Shown here piece by piece: positions 29,031 through 63,626 of a stretch of 64,000 nucleotides of DNA. The position numbers and the translations under genes are program-made. The notes under the pieces were generated by a model. The model saw nothing but the letters and a program-made list of their open reading frames with translations. It was not told the DNA's origin and ran no database searches. The DNA is from a virus. The number at the start of each line of letters is the position of its first letter. The stretch's first letter is position 1. Where the stretch lies: IMG/VR virus record IMGVR_UViG_3300045988_023748; one strand, written 5' to 3'.

Positions 29031-29303
29031 TAGGTGACATTTGTCCAGTATAAACTCCTCTAATTGCCGGAAGTCCCTTAGAGCTTTAAGTACTGTAATC
29101 TAGTGGTAACATTAGAGGTCACTCAAGTTAACGCTTGAGGTGTAGTAATAATCTTAAAGATTGGGTAATCACATTAAAAGGCAGCCAAGCATCCTACTTT
29201 AGGATGAAGGTTCATCGACTATCTCGAAAGAGAGTACAGACGTATTACATATTTATGACTGTAATAAATAAGCAATATGTTTGGAAACGGGGAGAGCTTG
29301 TAG

Positions 29304-29311
29304 TATCTTTG
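29304..29311 (+). promoter_or_regulatory. Bacteroidetes-type -7 box TATCTTTG upstream of intron GIY-YIG gene
   Basis: TAnnTTTG 24 nt before ATG 29335. The same box precedes other endonuclease genes at 1291, 45586 and 62831, with variants at 41677 and 47237. Confidence 0.5.
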
Positions 29312-29334
29312 CATAGAAACTAATAAAGTATTAC

Positions 29335-30084
29335 ATGAGTAAAACTTATCAATTCTATGCGTTATTTAATGAGGAATTTCCTCAAGAATGGAGATACATT
29401 GGAGTAACTAGTAAACAGATCAATGAAAGATTCTCTCATCATAAATATTGTGCGACTCATGATTCCCATAGAGCCTTACCAGTGCATAAATGGATGTATT
29501 CCGTTTACAGCAAAGGAGGTAAGATAGGGTGGGTGAAGATTCATGAATGTAGTGAATCTGAATGGGAGTATGAAGAACAAAGGCTAATCTCTGAAAATTC
29601 TAAAGTACATGAACTTCTTAATTTAGACAAAGGTGGTAAAGGAGTTATTACTAAAGATAAGAGAGATAGGTCTGGTATCGAGAGAAGTGTAGAAGCTCAT
29701 AAGAAGAGTATAATACAATTAGACAAGAACGGGAATTTTGTTCAGGAGTTTGATGCAGTAACATCTGCATCAGAATTAACAGGAATTTCTAGAACTAGTA
29801 TAGGTAATTGTCTAAGGGAGAGGTCTAAAACAGCAGGTGGATATGTATGGGTATATAAGGAACATTATTCTAAAGCAGAAGTTGCTGATATTCCTCCTAG
29901 TAAAGGAAGGAACATTAGAGTATTTAAATATTCACCTGATATGGAACTTATATGTGAATACAATTCTATATCTAAAGCTGTTAGTGGTGTGTGTAAATCT
30001 GGACATACATTAACAAGACATCTGGATACTAATGAGTTATACAAAGGATTTTACTGGTTTACGTCCAAGCAAGTTAAGATATAG
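29335..30084 (+). CDS. GIY-YIG homing endonuclease
   Basis: YQFYALFNEE...WRYIGVTSKQINERFSHH GIY-YIG motifs, with C-terminal DNA-binding repeats. Confidence 0.7.
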   Translation: MSKTYQFYALFNEEFPQEWRYIGVTSKQINERFSHHKYCATHDSHRALPVHKWMYSVYSKGGKIGWVKIHECSESEWEYEEQRLISENSKVHELLNLDKGGKGVITKDKRDRSGIERSVEAHKKSIIQLDKNGNFVQEFDAVTSASELTGISRTSIGNCLRERSKTAGGYVWVYKEHYSKAEVADIPPSKGRNIRVFKYSPDMELICEYNSISKAVSGVCKSGHTLTRHLDTNELYKGFYWFTSKQVKI

Positions 30085-30115
30085 TCAGGCTGTTAGGGAA
30101 ACCTAATAGGTTTTG

Positions 30116-42489: not shown

Positions 42490-43668
42490 ATGCTTAATGT
42501 CAGAATTATTACTATAATGCCTAAGAAACTTACTACTGAAGAATGGATTAATAAAGCTAGAATTAAACATGGAGATAAATATGATTATTCTAAATCTGTG
42601 TACACTGGAAGTAGAGATAGAATAATCATCACTTGTCCGAAACATGGCGACTTTACAGCTATATCCGGATTGCATATTTCTAGAGGGGATGGTTGTCCTG
42701 AGTGTGCTTCATTAGCTAAAAGTAGCAAGCTTTCATTATCTAATGAAGAATTTATTAACCGTTTACGTGACATGTTTGGGGATAATTATGATTACTCTAA
42801 AGTCAAATATAATGGCACTAGAGGGTATGTTACCATAGTATGTCCTAAACATGGTGAATTTAAGGCCCGTGTTGGCACTCTATCGAGAGGTGTAGGATGT
42901 CTGAAATGTAAAGAGGAAGAAAGACTTAAAAAGTTTAATGACCTTTACATAAAGAAATTTAAGGAGTACTACCCAGATTTAGATTATAGTAAAACTGTAT
43001 ATACTGGGTGGGATACTAGAATAGTTATAACATGCCCCAAACACGGTGACTTTGAAGTCCTTCCTAACCACTTTCTTAGGTATAAAGGGTGTCCAAAATG
43101 CTCTGCTGAAAGTCATGCAAAGTATATGCAGAAGTCCTTAGATGACTTTCTAAAGGATGCCAGACGCATTCATGGCACACGTTATGATTATTCTAGAGTA
43201 GAGTACAACGATAGTCGTACAAAGGTCTGTATTGTATGCCCTGAACATGGTGAATTTTGGCAGACTCCAAATAGCCATATACAAGGTAGTGGCTGCCCTA
43301 GCTGCTCAAGTTCAAAGGGCGAAGAAGAGGTATGTAACATTTTGTTAAGTAATGGAATTAAATTTATAAGGGAATACACTATCCAAGTGCCTAATGAGAT
43401 TAACACCTCTGGACACGCTTATATTGATTTTTACTTACCAGAATATAATACCTTTGTGGAATATAATGGCATTCAACATTATAATCCTAAAATGGCATTT
43501 GGCGGGTCTTTCAAATTTGAGCGACAACAAGCTCGTGACGAGTATGTTAGGCAATATTGTAAAGACAATAATATCAAATTAATAGAGATTCGTTATGATG
43601 AAGATGTGTGGGAAGTTTTGACCAGAGAACTTCTTGATAATCAAACAACAAACGAAGAATGCAAATAA
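42490..43668 (+). CDS. multi-zinc-ribbon protein with C-terminal DUF559/Vsr-like endonuclease domain
   Basis: Four copies of the unit CP(K/E)HG(D/E)F...GCPxC. C-terminus HAYIDFYLPEYNTFVEYNGIQH (DF...E.NG.H). Confidence 0.45.
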   Translation: MLNVRIITIMPKKLTTEEWINKARIKHGDKYDYSKSVYTGSRDRIIITCPKHGDFTAISGLHISRGDGCPECASLAKSSKLSLSNEEFINRLRDMFGDNYDYSKVKYNGTRGYVTIVCPKHGEFKARVGTLSRGVGCLKCKEEERLKKFNDLYIKKFKEYYPDLDYSKTVYTGWDTRIVITCPKHGDFEVLPNHFLRYKGCPKCSAESHAKYMQKSLDDFLKDARRIHGTRYDYSRVEYNDSRTKVCIVCPEHGEFWQTPNSHIQGSGCPSCSSSKGEEEVCNILLSNGIKFIREYTIQVPNEINTSGHAYIDFYLPEYNTFVEYNGIQHYNPKMAFGGSFKFERQQARDEYVRQYCKDNNIKLIEIRYDEDVWEVLTRELLDNQTTNEECK

Positions 43669-44443: not shown

Positions 44444-45490
44444 ATGTTAGTAATTAAAAGAAATAAGAGAGTAGAACCTTTCGATATTAATAAGATTGAC
44501 GCGGCTATTACTAAGGCGTTCAATGCTGTTAACGAACCAATTGATTCCGATATTTTGGATGATATTAAAGATGAATTGTATATTAACAACATAGTATCAG
44601 TAGAAGAGCTTCAAGATCAAATTGAAAAGGCTTTGATGGCTTGTGATTACTATGATGTCGCTAAAGCATTCATTTTGTATCGACATAAACAAGCTGAACT
44701 TAGAGCATTAGCTGGGAAGAAGCAGTTTATTAAGGATTATGCCAAAGCATCTAATGCTGCTACAGGTAGTAAATATGATGCTAATGCCAATGTTACTGAG
44801 AAGAATATAGTAACTTTAAATGGAGAGTTGTTTAAGGGTGATGTAATTAAAGTTAATAGAGCAATCCTTACAGATAAAATTAGGCAGTTATATGGTGAAG
44901 ATTTAGCTAAGGAGTATATTAGACAACTGGAATCTCATGAACTTTACAAGCATGATGAAACATCAATTATGCCCTACTGCGTGGCTATCACTATGTATCC
45001 GTTCCTACTTGAAGGGCTACAGCCAATTGGAGGTTTGTCTGCCAAGCCTAAGAATCTGGACTCCTTCTGCGGTATGTTTGTTAATCTGGTATTTGCTATC
45101 AGCTCGCAATTCGCTGGAGCAGTAGCTACTGGTGAGTTCCTAATGTATTTCGATTATTTCGCTCGTAAAGAATGGGGTGATGATTATTGGAAACGTCCAG
45201 AAGAGATGGTTGATAAACATAGAAATATTGATAAGACTATTGAACAGAAGTTCCAACAGATTGTATATTCAATCAATCAACCAGCAGCTGCTCGTAACTT
45301 CCAATCAGTATTCTGGAATATCAGTTATTTTGATAAGAATTACTTTGAAGGTTTATTTGGTGAGTTTGTATTCCCCGATGGAACTAAGCCCATATGGGAT
45401 TCTTTGAACTGGTTACAGAAGAAGTTTATGACTTGGTTTAACGAGGAGAGGACTAAGTGCATATTAACGTTCCCTGTGAATTTCGCAGCT
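44444..45490 (+). CDS. nrdD: anaerobic ribonucleotide reductase NrdD, exon 1 (ATP-cone plus N-terminal catalytic region)
   Basis: ATP-cone VIKRNKRVEPFDINKIDAAITKA. Terminates at a TGA that is followed by intron core blocks. Confidence 0.65.
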
Positions 45491-46295
45491 TGATAGAGTA
45501 ATCTATCTCGAACAACTCCTCTAATTGCTGGGACATCTTAACATTAATTAATGGTAGAAAGTTAGGAAATGTAAGTAAATTACATTATCTTTGCACTAGA
45601 TAATTAGTATTAAGACAATCAGCAGCTAAGCATTATGGAAGAAATTTGGAAAGAAATCCCTAACTATGAAGGGTACTTTGAAGTAAGTACTTTAGGTAAC
45701 TTTAGAAGTAAAGATAGAATTATCAAGTATAAGCAATCTGGAACTCGTAATTATCCTGGCAAATCACTTAAAGTAGAGGTTATGCAAGATGGTTACAGTA
45801 GGATTGTGTTAATGAAAGAAGGTGTTAAGAAAAGATATATGTGTCATAGGCTTGTAGCTGAGACGTACATACCAAATCCTGACAACAAACCTTACGTTAA
45901 TCATATAGATGGCAATCGTTCTAATAACTGTGTAGAGAACCTAGAATGGTGCACACAGTCAGAGAATGAAAGACACTCTGTAGATGTACTTGGTAAGTCT
46001 ATGAAGGGGAAGACTGCTCCAAAGGCAGTCAGATGTATAGAGAATGATACTATATATAAATCTATGAGTGAAGCAGTACGCCTTATAGGTAAGCCATCTT
46101 GTGTGGAAGGGTTACATAAAGCTATCAATGCTAATAGGTTGTATCATGGATATACATTTGAGTTCTGTAATGAAAGTTCAACGACTATCTCGAAAGAGAG
46201 TACACTGTAAGCTATTGACAGTGGAAATGGGGAGAATCCTAATAGGATTGTGATATAGTCTGACCTGTATGGTGACATACAGCAGTTCATAAGAG
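45491..46295 (+). mobile_element. group I intron 1 in nrdD with HNH endonuclease (boundaries approximate)
   Basis: AACTCCTCTAATTGCTGGGA is shared with the helicase intron (29058), as are CGACTATCTCGAAAGAGAGTACA and CCTAATAGG. GATATAGTC motif plus a P9-like hairpin ctgtatggtgacatacag. Confidence 0.55.
45635..46210 (+). CDS. HNH homing endonuclease (NUMOD4 plus HNH)
   Basis: EIWKEIPNYEGYFEVSTLGNFRS, then VNHIDGNRSNNCVENLEWCTQSENERH. Confidence 0.8.
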   Translation: MEEIWKEIPNYEGYFEVSTLGNFRSKDRIIKYKQSGTRNYPGKSLKVEVMQDGYSRIVLMKEGVKKRYMCHRLVAETYIPNPDNKPYVNHIDGNRSNNCVENLEWCTQSENERHSVDVLGKSMKGKTAPKAVRCIENDTIYKSMSEAVRLIGKPSCVEGLHKAINANRLYHGYTFEFCNESSTTISKESTL

Positions 46296-47123
46296 AACGC
46301 ATATAGTGTAGCGAACTATATGGAACATATGTGGGAAACTGTAGCACTTCTTACTGATGGAGAGGATGTAGTAGATAAAGAATGGGCAGACTTTACAGCA
46401 GAGATGTATAGTAAGGGACACTCATTCTTTACTTATATGTCTGATTCAGCAGATAGTCTGTCAAGTTGTTGTAGACTTCGCAATGAAGTAACTGATAATC
46501 AATTTAGTTATTCTCTTGGAGCTGGTGGTATTGCTACTGGTAGCAAATCTGTAATGACTTTAAATATTAATAGATTAGTTCAAGATGCAGTTAATAACGG
46601 ATACGATATGATTGAGTATTTACGTGAAAACGTTCAGAAAGTTCATAAATATCAAACTGCATATAATGAATTACTCAAAGACTATTTAAATGATGGTTTA
46701 CTAACTGTCTATTCTGCTGGATTCATTCATATGAAGAAACAGTATTTGACTGTAGGTGTTAATGGAGTTATCGAAGCTGCTGAGTTCTTAGGAATTCCAG
46801 TTAATGATAATCCTACTTACAGAGAATTTATGCAATCTATCCTTAAAACTATTAGCGATGAAAATCGTAAAGCTAGAACTAAGGAGTTGATGTTTAACTG
46901 TGAGTTTGTCCCAGCGGAGAACCTGGGAGTTAAACATGCTATGTGGGACAGGAAGGCAGGTTACTTTGTACCAAGAGATTGCTATAATAGTTACTTCTAT
47001 GCTGTAGAAGATACTTCCTTGACTATACTTGATAAATTTAAACTACATGGTAAAGATTATATCAAGTATCTTGATGGTGAACAATCGCCTGTTATATCTT
47101 TGCGTTTAACCAGACGGGTATAG
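46296..47123 (+). CDS. nrdD: NrdD exon 2 (middle region)
   Basis: The in-frame reading opens at 46296 after the last upstream stop. The track ORF starts at ATG 46320. Confidence 0.55.
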   Translation, partial: NAYSVANYMEHMWETVALLTDGEDVVDKEWADFTAEMYSKGHSFFTYMSDSADSLSSCCRLRNEVTDNQFSYSLGAGGIATGSKSVMTLNINRLVQDAVNNGYDMIEYLRENVQKVHKYQTAYNELLKDYLNDGLLTVYSAGFIHMKKQYLTVGVNGVIEAAEFLGIPVNDNPTYREFMQSILKTISDENRKARTKELMFNCEFVPAENLGVKHAMWDRKAGYFVPRDCYNSYFYAVEDTSLTILDKFKLHGKDYIKYLDGEQSPVISLRLTRRV

Positions 47124-48140
47124 TAATTAACTATGCTAACGGGGAAGCCTGAAGCTTGAGTCGTGAGACTAGATGTATGGTAATCCCGTGGGAAATTAAT
47201 TATGATGTATGAGTTGCACATCTCCATTTAAATTAGTAAATTTGTAGAAATTATTAATATAATGATCATCTATAAAATTACTAACAGTATTAACGGCAAG
47301 GTGTATATAGGTTTAACTACAGTTACACTAGAAGCAAGATGGAGAGGTCACATAAGAGACAGTAGAGTGTGTGATAGACACTTATATAGGTCTATGCGTA
47401 AATACGGTCTTGAGAACTTTACTATAGAAGAGATAGATAATACTGACGACTTTAAGAAGCTTGGGGAATTAGAGAGGTACTATATAAAGACCTTTGATTC
47501 CAGGAATCCTGATAAAGGATATAATATTACTGGGGGAGGTGAATCTAACCAGTTAGACGGAAACCCTAGAGCTAAACTTAAAGTGGAAGATGTAATTCAA
47601 ATTCGAGAGATTTACTCTTATGGAGACTTGAGATGTAAGGAATGTTGGGAGATGTTTAAGGATAGAATCTCCTACTCAGCATTTCAGAAGATTTGGGAAG
47701 GAATTACTTGGCAATCTGTTATGCCGGAAGTTTATACTGAATCTAATAAAGTACATCATAGTTCTCAAAAGAGTAATCCAGGAAGTTTGAATGGTAATGC
47801 AATATACTCTGACGAAGAAGTCTTAGAGATACGTAAGTATTATACTAATCATACCTTAACAGAAACATATGAGAAGTATGGTAGCAGAAGTAAATCTAAA
47901 GATAGCTTTAGAGGTTTAATTGCTAATTCATATAAACATCTTCCAATCTACAGTAAAGTTAAATCTGCCTGGCTACTTAATGGTCAGGAGATAAACATTG
48001 ATAATTATAATCCTGTATCGACTATCCTCGGATCGGAGGAGTAAGGCAGCTATTGGTACGCTGCTTGAAATGGATATTGCGGAAGTACTTCCGTTAAGAT
48101 ATAGTCAGTGCTAATGGAAACATTAGATAAACACGGGTAG
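47124..48140 (+). mobile_element. group I intron 2 in nrdD with GIY-YIG endonuclease (different intron family; boundaries approximate)
   Basis: GAGACTAGATG (P7 5'-like) at 47170 and TTAAGATATAGTCAG (P7 3'-like) at 48083. A TAAATTTG box precedes the ORF. Confidence 0.5.
47262..48044 (+). CDS. GIY-YIG homing endonuclease
   Basis: IIYKITNSINGKVYIGLTTVTLEARWRGH. Confidence 0.7.
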   Translation: MIIYKITNSINGKVYIGLTTVTLEARWRGHIRDSRVCDRHLYRSMRKYGLENFTIEEIDNTDDFKKLGELERYYIKTFDSRNPDKGYNITGGGESNQLDGNPRAKLKVEDVIQIREIYSYGDLRCKECWEMFKDRISYSAFQKIWEGITWQSVMPEVYTESNKVHHSSQKSNPGSLNGNAIYSDEEVLEIRKYYTNHTLTETYEKYGSRSKSKDSFRGLIANSYKHLPIYSKVKSAWLLNGQEINIDNYNPVSTILGSEE

Positions 48141-48150
48141 CGCCCTCCAC

Positions 48151-48423
48151 ATGAATCTAGATGAACATCTTAGTAAGGAACAGTATCGTAACTTGTTGAA
48201 AGTGGCAGCTGTCAATGGTACTAACTATTTCACATTTAATATTCCAAATACTATTTGTAATGATTGTGGACATATTGATAAAAGATATCTCAAAGAATGT
48301 CCTAAGTGTGGTAGTAAGAACATTGATTATGCTACTAGAGTTATCGGTTATTTAAAACGTGTTAGCAACTTCAGTCAAGCAAGACAAGAAGAAGCTAGCA
48401 GAAGATTCTACGCACATGCTTAA
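48151..48423 (+). CDS. nrdD: NrdD exon 3 (Zn-ribbon and glycyl-radical motif)
   Basis: CNDCGH...CPKCG four-Cys ribbon, followed by TRVIGYLKRV (RVxGY glycyl-radical signature). The true exon start is a few codons upstream of the ATG. Confidence 0.6.
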   Translation: MNLDEHLSKEQYRNLLKVAAVNGTNYFTFNIPNTICNDCGHIDKRYLKECPKCGSKNIDYATRVIGYLKRVSNFSQARQEEASRRFYAHA

Positions 48424-60726: not shown

Positions 60727-62627
60727 ATGATATATCTAGTAAGTAATCAGAAATCACTATTTGAAACTGATGCTTATAAAGAACTGTCTCTGTCTGACGC
60801 TATAGACATGATAATGCCTCATAGTTGGATAGAATATGATAGTGAAACTGCTGGTCTTGATCCATATACAAAACCTCTATTGTGTACTCAATATGGTTTA
60901 GGAGAGGATCAGATAGTTATTGATAATGTAACCATTCCAATTGAAAAGCTTAGATGTGTGCTTGAAGATCCTACTAAAACATTTCTAGGTTGGAATATTG
61001 CGTTTGATTTAAGGTTTCTATATCATCATAGAATAGTTCCTTATAATGTATGGGATGGAATGATTGCTGAGAAGATACTCTATCTAGGGTATCCTCCTCA
61101 GTTTCATAGTCTTGCTTTAAAAGCTGCCGCTGACTTCTATCTTGGTATAGATATTGATAAAACAGTTCGAGGACAAATTATCACACAAGGTTTAACAATA
61201 CCAGTAGTACAATATGCTGCTGGTGATGTTATGTATCTTACTAAGATTAAAGAGAAGCAAGATGCAGAGCTAGAGAAGAAAGAATTAACTAAGGCTGCTG
61301 AATTTGAAATGAAGTTTACTCCAGTAATTGCTTATATGGAATATTGTGGAGCTAAACTTGATCCAATCAAATGGAAGCAAAAGATGTCGAGGGATAAAGA
61401 AGAAGTTAATAAAGCAGAAGCTGCTCTTAATAAGTGGGTAGAGGATTATTATGAAGAACATAAATCTTCTACTGAGGGATATATTAGAGTATCTACCGAA
61501 GAAGTTCCCATTATGGAAGAGTTTAAACTATTTGATTCCCTAAACAATAATATGAGTAATGTAAAGAGAGTTCAGAATCCTCAAACTGGACTTATTCATT
61601 ATGAGTATGATAAAGCATTTCCATATGTAACACGTAATCTACAGGGAGATTTGTTCTCTGGATTTGATACTTGTGCTAAATGTAATGTAAACTGGTCTAG
61701 TAGCCAACAAGTAGTGCCTTTATTTGAACATCTAGGTCTTAACTGTACTACTATAGACCCAAAGACTAAAGTTAAGAAGAAATCTGCTGATATAAAGCTT
61801 ATTAAGCCACAAGCCAATAAGTGTACTATAGTTCCATTATATGTAGAGTATAAGAAGGCTAAAATACTTGTTGATACTTTTGGGCAGAAGTTTATAGATA
61901 AGATTAATCCAGTTAGTGGACGTATTCATCCAGATTATTTCCAATTAGGAGCCGATACTGGTCGATTGTCTGCAACCAACCCGTCCCTAATGAATCTTCC
62001 ACATGATCCATTTACTAGAAGTTGTTTTATAGCAGATTCTGGATATAAATGGATCAGTTGTGATTATAAAGGACAGGAATCCTTCTTAATGGCGTCTATT
62101 GCTAATGATGTGGCCATGTTGGACGAATTAGTAAATGGAAGTGGAGATTTACATAGTCTAACTGCTAGAATAGTATTCACTGATATTCCTGATGATACTC
62201 CATTATCTGAAGTTAAGGCTAAATATAAACCTCTTAGAGATGCTGCTAAAGGGTATGAGTTCTGTTTCAACTATGGAGGAGATTGGAACACTTTAATGAA
62301 GAACTATGGTCTTACTAAGAGAAGGGCTCAAGAAGTATATGATAATTATATGTCTGGTTTCTCTGGATTAAAGAGATATCAGGAATTTAGGAGGGAAGAC
62401 GTTCTAGATAAGGGATATATCCTTCTTAATCCTATTACTAAACATAAAGCATTCATATATGATTGGGATAATCTTTGTAAGATAGACAGCGAATTGGGTT
62501 CTCCAGAAGCTAAATATATGTTAGGATCTAACGGTGATAATTATTACAAAACAAGCTCTCAGCATTTGAGGAGAAGGTTATCTGATTCAATGAAACAATC
62601 TATTAACTATCCGATGAACTCACAAGT
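60727..62627 (+). CDS. polA: family-A DNA polymerase with 3'-5' exonuclease, exon 1 (through motif B)
   Basis: Exo motif YDSETAGLD; motif A SCDYKGQE; motif B RDAAKGYEFCFNYGG. Ends at PMNSQ(V), where Pol I has PMQGTAAD. Confidence 0.7.
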
Positions 62628-63626
62628 TGTGTCGGAGTAAAACTCCCTTAATTCGGTGAACCCTGGAGCACAAGTCGTGATGATTAACTGTATGGGAATA
62701 CCGAGCCAACCTAAACAGTAATGTTTAGAAGTGTGTAGAGACTAGAACACGGATTCCTTACTTTAGATGGTAAGGAAGGTAAAGTTCCACGAACAGGGAG
62801 AATATGTTATGTATTACACATAATATTAATTATCTTTGCAGGGTAATTAATAATTAAAAATTGTATTATGTGTAGTACTAAAATTTGCAAACGTTGTAAT
62901 AAAGAACAATCTATAGACAACTTCTATAAAGTCCCGTCTATGAAAGATGGACATGATAATACATGTAAGACTTGTAGGAAGGAGTTAAGAAGACTAAGAG
63001 ACGGAGTTAAAGTAACACCTATAGTTACTGAAGGTACACTAATCTGTCCTGTATGTAAACAAGAGTTACCAGTAGATAAGTTTGATACTTATGCTAAAAG
63101 TAAAACTGGTAGATATTGGATGTGTAGTGATTGCTATAAAGAGCATACATTAATTAATGGTGGACAAGATAAGAACTATTTCAGGAAGCTTAGAATTAAA
63201 CTATGTCCAGAATATAGAGAAGAAATTCAGCAGCAGAAGAAGGCGTCCAGAGAACGTAACATAGAACAAGCTATGTTAACCAGTGCCAAAAATCGTGCTG
63301 CCAGAAAGGGGTTAGAATTTAACTTGGAACTGTCTGATATAGTAATTCCAGAGAAATGTCCGCTGTTGGAAGTTCCATTCCATTTTGGAACTAAAGAATG
63401 CTATGATTACTCTCCATCTATTGATAGAATTGACAATTCTAAAGGATACGTTAAGGGAAATATTCAAATCATCAGTATGAAAGCTAACGCTATGAAGAAC
63501 TCTGCGTCTCTTGAGGAGTTATACACGTTTTGTAAAAACATATTAAGATATAGTCCGAACTGCACCGAACAGGTACAGAATTAGAGGATAAAGAGCCTCT
63601 AAGATAACAGAATGACAACATGCTGG
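62628..63626 (+). mobile_element. group I intron in polA carrying an HNH endonuclease (boundaries approximate)
   Basis: GAGACTAGAAC and TAAGATAACAG P7-like elements, plus a TATCTTTG box at 62831. Exon 2 has no need for its own start codon if spliced. Confidence 0.5.
62868..63584 (+). CDS. HNH-family homing endonuclease with N-terminal zinc fingers
   Basis: CxxC pairs ICPVCK/CSDC. C-terminal ...IDRIDNSKGYVKGNIQIIS..AN.MK HNH-like motif. Confidence 0.6.
   Translation: MCSTKICKRCNKEQSIDNFYKVPSMKDGHDNTCKTCRKELRRLRDGVKVTPIVTEGTLICPVCKQELPVDKFDTYAKSKTGRYWMCSDCYKEHTLINGGQDKNYFRKLRIKLCPEYREEIQQQKKASRERNIEQAMLTSAKNRAARKGLEFNLELSDIVIPEKCPLLEVPFHFGTKECYDYSPSIDRIDNSKGYVKGNIQIISMKANAMKNSASLEELYTFCKNILRYSPNCTEQVQN

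Follow-up and report, generated by a model that had tools for sequence, protein, structure and literature searches.

In the 64,000-nucleotide (nt) stretch of DNA from an uncultivated gut phage analyzed here (IMG/VR record IMGVR_UViG_3300045988_023748; hereafter the window), the gene for the anaerobic ribonucleotide reductase (RNR), nrdD, is broken into pieces, which raises the question of whether it is a gene with removable insertions, an enzyme made in parts, or a gene that no longer functions. Five forward-strand open reading frames (ORFs) lie across positions 44444–48423 in the program-made ORF list of the window, and the Pfam assignments (Table 1) bear out a preliminary description of the locus in which NrdD was encoded in three pieces: an ATP-cone and N-terminus, a middle part, and a zinc ribbon with an RVIGY tail. 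We conclude that nrdD very probably holds two independent group I introns with IA2-type cores, each with a homing endonuclease gene; the reading frames, the intron cores, and the ORF families agree with the earlier proposal of two endonuclease-bearing introns of different lineages.

The nrdD reading frame and its junctions

The limits of the two insertions are fixed by comparison with an intact gene. A megablast search of GenBank phages matched one relative, MT835470.1, an unannotated scaffold that is the sole GenBank relative of the surrounding DNA, and its nrdD is uninterrupted, with 2067 nt encoding 688 amino acids (aa). Joining window positions 44444–45477, 46334–47078 and 48136–48423 also gives exactly 2067 nt, and in a spliced alignment the product is gap-free, collinear, and 93% identical in amino acid sequence to the MT835470.1 homologue. 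Either intron boundary can shift by 1 nt (G/G), and we have placed the junctions as given because this is the sole choice in which, following the group I rule, the upstream exon ends in U and the insert ends in G. The predicted joins read ...TTCCCTGT/GGAAACTG... at 45477/46334 and ...CTTGATGGT/GGTAGCGCC... at 47078/48136 (here and below a slash within a sequence or motif marks the junction), and the two introns are located at NrdD residues 345 and 593.

Together with the relatives described below, three insertion sites are used, TFPV/ET, VP/AE and DG/GSA, and all are inside motifs that stay invariant when NrdD of the window is aligned with that of T4 and with relatives as distant as 52% identity; the T4 counterparts are TP/AEN at the VP/AE site and TG/GH at the DG/GSA site. 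An intact nrdG follows nrdD with the usual ATGCTTAA overlap, as in MT835470.1. Its start is most likely the ATG at 48417, overlapping the nrdD stop (ATGCTTAA, 48417–48423), and the GTG at 48359 of the ORF list is probably not the start. Automatic gene calling would turn this essential gene into three fragments and add two genes labelled 'hypothetical' or endonuclease, and the exact junctions permit its correct annotation.

Group I cores in both insertions

Both inserts are preceded by an exon U that forms a U·G pair in P1, and both end in G. Each contains the conserved core, with P3/P8, P4–P6, the P7 pseudoknot with its G-binding pair, and a consensus J8/7, and each has P7.1 and P7.2 hairpins between P7 and the 3′ strand of P3, which are IA2-like. 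Copies of GATATAGTC are located at 46252 and 48098, with others at 30078 and 63547. In an E-value scan of the 64-kb window there are only two matches to the Rfam group I model RF00028, both on the forward strand and at the 3′ cores of the nrdD inserts. Both endonuclease ORFs are in the P6 region and read through J6/7 and P7 into P7.1, and because they cross P7 in the same frame (xCG ACU AUC) the two unrelated enzymes have similar tails (...STTISKESTL and ...PVSTILGSEE).

In the mechanism that we propose, nrdD and its introns would be transcribed as one pre-mRNA, in which each intron would fold into a P3–P8, P4–P6 and P7 core; a guanosine-driven cut behind the U that ends the exon and pairs with G in P1, and exon ligation after the terminal G of the intron, would then yield the 688-aa NrdD frame. 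The last codons of each ORF are also J6/7, P7 and P7.1, so that ribosomes translating the ORF and the folding ribozyme would compete for one RNA. The I-HmuI-like HNH enzyme and the GIY-YIG enzyme would cut the intron-less nrdD alleles of co-infecting relatives, and repair would copy the intron, with some flanking exon, into the cut allele (homing).

Intron 1 and its relationship to the helicase intron

Intron 1 is an ordinary member of a large family of IA2-type phage introns, as indicated by partial RF00028 matches, its fold, a readable P1 and P10, and the breadth of its relatives. Its 3′ part scores 29.2 bits on RF00028 in E-value mode, with J6/7-P7, P3′, P8, J8/7-P7′ and P9 aligned at high posterior probability, and its 5′ part alone (45468–45660) gives a 3′-truncated match of 21.0 bits in which P1, P2, P3, J3/4, P4 and P4′ are aligned. 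J3/4 is 3 nt and directly follows the 5′ strand of P3 (CUCCUC UAA UUGCUG). The minimum free energy (MFE) fold of the ORF-deleted intron contains P2, P3, P4/P5, P6, P7.1, P7.2, P8 and P9 together with two distal hairpins. In a blastn search of GenBank phages the ORF-less core matches 727 records, among them the Twort orf142 intron region, AR9/PBS1, staphylococcal phages, and T4-group phages. The 3′ core is 79% identical to Lak phages over about 186 nt, and 80% identical over 155 nt to Clostridioides phage AR1086-1, whose ORF-less element reaches 110 bits on RF00028.

The ORF of intron 1 encodes an I-HmuI-like protein, with Pfam matches to NUMOD4 (3.9e-13) and HNH_3 (5.1e-10) and similarity to I-HmuI itself (PDB 1U3E, E=1e-14) over residues 5–175. 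Its AUG is within the 5′ strand of P6, its UAA stop (46208–46210) is in P7.2, and its last 13 codons overlay P6′, J6/7, P7, P7.1 and the start of P7.2. The earlier observation that a 23-mer (46182–46204) overlaps the 3′ end of this ORF, such that the endonuclease reads into the ribozyme core, is therefore correct.

This intron had also been described as a sibling of one in a helicase gene of the window (Table 1), and here the similarity was overstated. The helicase intron has a P1 of 6 base pairs (bp) with a U·G pair and a P10 of 6 bp, and the shared strings on which the claim was based are present, although the meaning given to some of them was not always right: a 20-mer at 45514–45533 and 29053–29072, the 23-mer at 46182–46204 and 29216–29238 (with 0 expected by chance), and CCTAATAGG at 46238 and 30102. 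The 20-mer is the P3-J3/4-P4 consensus, also present in AR1086-1. The 23-mer is family-wide, with exact copies in more than 118 IMG/VR stretches (a lower bound), and BLAST finds one 35-nt common segment only. The third string forms the P8 hairpin in intron 1, but in the helicase intron it spans the 3′ strand of P9 and the tail, and its position reads CCTAATGGG in relatives of the helicase intron; because the helices are not homologous and the relatives differ, we regard its sharing as coincidence and not as a sign of kinship. The two introns differ in P2, P5, P6, P7.2, P8, P9, the family of the ORF, and its place (P6 as opposed to the P8 loop), and in the Rfam scan the helicase region gives only a 33-nt partial match of 17.7 bits. 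They belong to the same broad family and have an identical P7–P7.1 segment in common, and the data support nothing beyond this. The helicase intron is missing from 34 of 36 related loci (L282–L317), with only L311 and L312 carrying a variant, and IMGVR_UViG_3300045988_040791 lacks it and has an nrdD that, both introns included, is identical to that of the window; it is thus rare, and probably a recent gain in the window genome.

Structure of intron 2 and its GIY-YIG endonuclease

The 3′ core of intron 2 scores 26.5 bits on RF00028 in the whole-window E-value scan, and a short-range Rfam scan recovers 47995–48127 as a 5′-truncated match (22.3 bits, E=4.7e-4), in which P7 is aligned as GACUA 48020–48024 and P3′ as GGAUAU. 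The segment GUAUCGACUAUCCUCGGAUCGGAGGAGUAAGGCAGC... directly before the GIY-YIG stop parallels GUUCAACGACUAUCUCGAAAGAGAGUACACUGU... of intron 1. The P7 halves had previously been given as GACTAGATG (47167–47175) and AAGATATAGTC (48096), and the first of these is mistaken: the real 5′ strand of P7 is GACTA 48020–48024, and the GACU of GACTAGATG is the 3′ strand of the P5 distal hairpin, whose closing C-G pair is U-A in relatives, a compensatory change. Three other arrangements were discarded. The first has GACUA 47167 as P7 with the ORF in the P7.1 loop, against the parallel of CGACUAUCCUCGG... (48018) with CGACUAUCUCGAAAG... of intron 1 and its alignment as P7 by Rfam; the second is a UUGCG/CGUGA pairing, against the covariation of C85-G91 within the P5 hairpin; and the third, the outcome of MFE folding without constraints, has the 5′ strand of P3 paired with J8/7 (AAGAUAUAG), against the covariation of P3 with P3′.

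The full structure is supported by covariation among 13 distinct sequences, obtained as IMG/VR relatives in a protein search with the GIY-YIG enzyme and carrying the same RNA in the flanks. Helix strands were taken at fixed offsets from conserved anchors. All 53 proposed pairs, in 11 helices, form standard pairs in every sequence (100% of 689 cells), compared with 31–45% of cells in controls with partners slid by 1–3 columns; because the alignment is not independent of the proposed structure the absolute numbers are affected more than this contrast, and the slid controls speak against an artefact. Compensatory changes are seen in 29 of the 53 pairs, and none of 500 shuffles reached the observed values. 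These changes occur in P1, P3, P4, P5, P7.1, P7.2, P8 and P9, and P7 and J8/7 are invariant. The P1 U·G pair is present in 13/13 sequences, and two neighbouring P1 pairs covary.

Two additional hairpins, X and Y, are equally well supported by covariation, and follow the 5′ strand of P3, ahead of the UAA in front of P4; in intron 2, therefore, the IA2 arrangement in which a 3-nt J3/4 comes straight after the 5′ strand of P3 is interrupted by X and Y. P10 follows the guide sequence by eye. The P4/P5 region (ACGGGGAA...AAUCCCGUG) presumably resembles that of the td intron. Among 50,697 phage records the ORF-less core has no blastn match, and a shallow literature search for insertions between P3 and P4 returned nothing relevant. 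Although neither the Rfam gathering threshold nor BLAST against GenBank phages detects it, the architecture occurs in contigs of gut phages and in one isolated phage of Enterococcus. It is possible, and we suggest this only tentatively, that intron 2 belongs to a structural subclass of IA2-like group I introns not described before, defined by X (with a UAACCA-type loop) and Y, which is widespread, has moved among three or more kinds of target (two nrdD sites and a motif of a Pnk-like phosphatase), and perhaps includes an nrdD junction without splicing reads in Jug phages (see below). If indeed undescribed, the X/Y pair would interest specialists in RNA structure, and it illustrates how scans with covariance models come to undercount such introns.

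The isolated phage is VRE9_3 (L318; PP680569.1, approximately 135720–136740), in which P3, X, Y, the UAA, a td-like P4, and an ORF reading into P7 can be recognized. In the record, two fragments labelled 'hypothetical protein' flank the element, which carries no intron annotation and encodes an endonuclease with 33% identity.

The GIY-YIG ORF overlays J6/7, P7 and P7.1 with its last 9 codons. Its catalytic domain is recognized by Pfam (5.6e-9) and by similarity to that of I-TevI (1MK0, E=2e-5). The C-terminal 170 aa have no Pfam or PDB match, and are conserved in the full-length relatives, which share 52–100% identity in the IMG/VR protein search.

Intron gain and loss among related phages

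We mapped exons by blastn in 79 IMG/VR loci with relatives of the window NrdD. The gene is uninterrupted in 54, two are cut by contig ends, and 23 have one or two of four intron types (A1, A2, B and C; Table 1), of which A1 and C correspond to introns 1 and 2. All four types follow the U...G boundary rule and have a readable P1, and seven combinations occur over the three sites: none, A only, B only, C only, A+B, A+C and B+C. In one intron-less locus (L050, IMGVR_UViG_3300045988_037023) there is a frame break near residue 230, where the tblastn match is divided at 229/233 and its two parts overlap in coordinates, owing either to a faulty assembly or to a frameshift in the allele.

Two patterns strongly support intron mobility and recent transfer. 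First, A1 is 100.0% identical in L079, the nrdD exons of which are only about 80% identical to those of the window. Secondly, three loci that carry C (L032, L031 and L078) match the intron-less L002 at 100% identity over most 60-nt segments and at 95–100% over a few, with the exception of approximately 220 nt immediately upstream of the intron, where identity to L002 drops to 67–95% and the sequence resembles the window-type allele. We interpret this tract as a signature of exon co-conversion in homing. L073 (with A2) and L037 (with B) also have exons essentially identical to L002, and with exons alike in the presence and absence of each of the four types the population is a clean natural record of homing. 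Active mobility had been proposed earlier from the presence of two lineages and a sibling elsewhere; that reasoning was weak, and it is the population evidence that sustains the conclusion.

The A1 and A2 introns are unrelated, their insertion points are 2 nt apart in TFPV/ET, and they are never found together (loci L067–L080, and window 45477/45478), a pattern that suggests competition for a single site. GAAUUUCG is common to their P1 loops, as both must pair with the same exons. Relatives of intron C are found elsewhere, at the nrdD site QFG/GVSATH of a distant NrdD (L096) and in a Pnk-like phosphatase at DIDG/T (L104 and L105). In all of these C-type targets the insertion point is immediately preceded by GATGGT or TTTGGT, and this points to ectopic moves into similar-looking sites.

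Splicing, a split enzyme, or an inactive gene

Several observations weigh against splicing of two group I introns. The RF00028 scan is divided: E-value mode finds both 3′ cores (29.2 and 26.5 bits), but in gathering mode only tRNAs are reported in the whole window and neither intron reaches 50 bits, likely because a 576–783-nt ORF interrupts the model. The 5′ part of intron 2 (47000–47330) has no RF00028 match in the Rfam scan, probably because X and Y, which are absent from the standard model, split P3 from J3/4; its P10 is merely 2–3 bp, its P6 pairing is weakly defined, and its covariation alignment has the dependence on structure noted above. The case for splicing is built from sequence rather than from RNA, and a survey of gut jumbo phages detected no spliced reads over one nrdD junction, that between a 230-aa fragment and a 91-aa C-terminal fragment (PMC12880540). 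This junction could be of the intron 2 type.

The same junction would fit a split enzyme, in which the endonuclease cassettes stay in the message and three NrdD polypeptides assemble post-translationally, as with the NrdA-a and NrdA-b proteins of Aeromonas phage Aeh1, split by mobE, and the downstream pieces do appear as ORFs with ATG codons (46320 and 48151). These starts are poor ones, however: ATG 46320 is inside intron 1 and puts five foreign residues at the start of the fragment, and ATG 48151 is an internal Met conserved in intact proteins, so that four residues are lost. The break points are within invariant motifs, both inserts have a conserved group I core (covarying in the intron 2 family), and there are intron-less alleles with identical exons, hence no visible adaptation to a split state. 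We consider separate translation very unlikely.

Loss of splicing, with nrdD reduced to a pseudogene carrying selfish elements, would be compatible with the sub-threshold Rfam scores and the indirect nature of the evidence for splicing. It is difficult to reconcile with exons that have neither frameshift nor stop and share 93–100% protein identity with uninterrupted alleles, with P7, J8/7, P3, P4 and P8 pairings that are intact and kept by compensatory change, and with the intact downstream nrdG and its ATGCTTAA overlap, and we judge it very unlikely as well. Inteins, which are common in RNR genes (PMC3653736), are refuted by the in-frame stops 5 codons past the first junction (45491–45493) and 14 past the second (47121–47123), and moreover Pfam finds no Hint/intein domain in any insert ORF and the endonuclease ORFs are free-standing with their own starts.

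Comparison with known systems

Read as two group I introns, the insertions resemble several described elements. One is the T4 nrdD (sunY) intron with I-TevII, which is an IA-type group I intron (with P7.1/P7.2) in the same gene, encodes a GIY-YIG enzyme, and is at a conserved-motif site. It is 1033 nt long and differs in its position (T4 residue 180, which is window residue 275, as opposed to 345 and 593) and in the place of its ORF, downstream of the core and after P9 rather than in P6. I-TevII and the GIY-YIG enzyme of the window show no similarity as proteins, and a single nrdD intron is present in T4, whereas the window has two and its relatives use three regions. Intron 2 is like the T4 td intron in that its GIY-YIG catalytic domain is akin to that of I-TevI, and td likewise houses its I-TevI ORF in the P6 region; it differs from td by two added hairpins between P3 and J3/4 and by an ORF running into P7/P7.1. 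For intron 1 the counterpart is the DNA polymerase intron of Bacillus phage SPO1, as the HNH ORF matches I-HmuI over its full length (1U3E); the target gene is a different one, and the window ORF is in P6 and overlaps P7.

RNR genes are a classic home of phage group I introns, which are known in T4 nrdB and nrdD, Twort nrdE (two), Brochothrix A9 nrdE (three), and SPβ (PMC3653736). Staphylococcus phage Twort, like the window, has several IA2 introns per gene, one with an HNH enzyme, near conserved residues (PMC3653736), and its orf142 region (introns I1–I3) is 75% identical to the 3′ core of intron 1 over about 158 nt. It differs in that the hosts of the introns are nrdE (class Ib) or a structural gene of a Firmicutes phage, and splicing was shown there by experiment. 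Aeh1 nrdA is likewise an RNR gene physically split by a homing endonuclease gene, mobE (PMC3653736), but it lacks a ribozyme and its halves are translated separately, whereas both window inserts have a group I core.

Phages of the human gut provide a further parallel. According to a 2026 study, nrdD of Jug phages is divided into up to four fragments by group I introns with endonuclease genes, several junctions, not including that before the 91-aa C-terminal fragment, are confirmed as spliced by metatranscriptomes, and group I introns also fragment terL and DNA polymerase genes of gut Jug and crAss-like phages (PMC12880540). The window shares with these the gut habitat and an nrdD split by endonuclease-bearing group I introns, and relative to the text of that study it adds insertion sites, structures, and co-conversion data. 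Multi-intron phage RNR genes have already been described, and nothing here alters knowledge of group I introns.

Table 1. Features of the nrdD locus, the helicase intron, and the nrdD intron types of related loci. Positions are those of the window unless stated otherwise.
Feature	Position	Strand	Description	Basis
ORF	44444-45493	+	ATP-cone and NRDD N-part, profile 6-170	Pfam
ORF	45635-46210	+	NUMOD4 and HNH_3	Pfam
ORF	46320-47123	+	NRDD middle, profile 223-462	Pfam
ORF	47262-48044	+	GIY-YIG	Pfam
ORF	48151-48423	+	NRDD C-end, profile 478-560; CxxC...CxxC zinc ribbon, RVIGY	Pfam
nrdD exon 1	44444-45477	+	ATP-cone, NrdD N-terminal part; residues 1-344 and 2 nt of codon V345; last base T	Pfam, spliced alignment
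nrdD exon 2	46334-47078	+	Last base of codon 345 to G593; CCRL finger-loop motif; last base T	Pfam, alignments
nrdD exon 3	48136-48423	+	G594 to A688; zinc ribbon, RVIGY glycyl-radical motif	Pfam, spliced alignment
Intron 1	45478-46333	+	Predicted group I intron, IA2 type, 856 nt; terminal G is G46333	
Intron 1 P1	45474-45478 with 45484-45488	+	CUGU/G with CGCAG; U·G pair at splice site	Direct reading
Intron 1 P10 guide	45481-45484	+	UUUC in P1 loop; can pair with GAAA opening exon 2	
Intron 1 P2	45492-45507	+		
Intron 1 P3	45516-45521 with 46229-46234	+		
Intron 1 P4	45526-45530 with 45620-45624	+		
Intron 1 P6	45631-45640 with 46163-46172	+	CAUUAUGGAA paired with UUCUGUAAUG	
HNH homing endonuclease gene (putative)	45635-46210	+	191 aa; NUMOD4 and HNH_3, I-HmuI-like; intron 1 P6 loop	
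Intron 1 J6/7-P7	46176-46187	+		
Intron 1 P7.1; P7.2	46188-46199; 46203-46223	+		Folding, coordinate mapping
Intron 1 P8	46235-46249	+		
Intron 1 J8/7-P7′	46250-46260	+		
Intron 1 P9	46264-46283	+		
Intron 2	47079-48135	+	Predicted group I intron, IA2-type 3′ core, 1057 nt; terminal G is G48135	
Intron 2 P1	47076-47080 with 47085-47089	+	GGU/GA with UCGCC; U·G pair	
Intron 2 P3	47094-47099 with 48072-48077	+		
Intron 2 extra hairpin X	47103-47116	+	CGUUU-AACC-AGACG	
Intron 2 extra hairpin Y	47117-47137	+		
Intron 2 P4	47139-47144 with 47184-47189	+	ACGGGG with CCCGU; preceded by J3/4 UAA	
Intron 2 P5 distal hairpin	47159-47170	+	AGUC[GUGA]GACU, GNRA-capped	
GIY-YIG homing endonuclease gene (putative)	47262-48044	+	260 aa; intron 2 P6 region	
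Intron 2 J6/7-P7	48015-48024	+	GUAUCGACUA; P7 5′ strand GACTA 48020-48024, inside GIY-YIG ORF tail	
Intron 2 P7.1; P7.2	48026-48039; 48045-48065	+	3 and 5 compensatory pairs, respectively	
Intron 2 P8	48079-48094	+	GCGGAAG with CUUCCGU	
Intron 2 J8/7-P7′	48095-48106	+	UAAGAUAUAGUC	
Intron 2 P9	48111-48126	+	CUAAUG-GAAA-CAUUAG	
Helicase intron	29032-30115	+	1084 nt; inside DExH box (LLILD/ECH); no P2	Spliced protein matches uninterrupted genes
Helicase intron ORF	29335-30084	+	NUMOD1 domain; P8 loop	
Type A1	After nt 1034 of spliced nrdD		856 nt; HNH; 3 loci and the window	
Type A2	After nt 1032 of spliced nrdD (2 nt upstream of A1)		994-1006 nt; ORF of 229 aa (190 aa in 2 loci), near 3′ end; 7 loci	
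Type B	After nt 1614 of spliced nrdD (VP/AE)		960-962 nt; ORF of 232 aa (181 aa in one locus); 10 loci	
Type C	After nt 1779 of spliced nrdD (DG/GS)		1057-1059 nt; GIY-YIG; 9 loci and the window	

Other features of the window

A fourth group I intron, of 999 nt, is located at 62616–63614 and splits a gene for a family A DNA polymerase in its NYP(I)QH motif. The exon ends in ...TATCCGAT and the intron in ...AACAGAATG, with a P1 of UCCGAU paired with GUCGGA that includes a U·G pair, and a P10 of ACAAC paired with GUUGU. Its ORF (62868–63584) encodes a 238-aa zinc-finger protein and runs through J8/7-P7′ (GATATAGTC at 63547), and the 3′ end of the intron resembles those of the nrdD types A2 and B of the related phages.

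Just upstream of the nrdD neighbourhood (42490–43668) is an ORF of 392 aa with repeated zinc-ribbon modules (DUF723, DUF4379 and CapR), the C-terminal segment of which resembles nucleases of the Vsr/DUF559 type; the ORF possibly encodes a free-standing homing endonuclease. The relatives of the window are on contigs of up to 270–282 kb, compatible with a large or jumbo gut phage, and thirteen tRNA genes are clustered on the forward strand of the window between 2562 and 22245.

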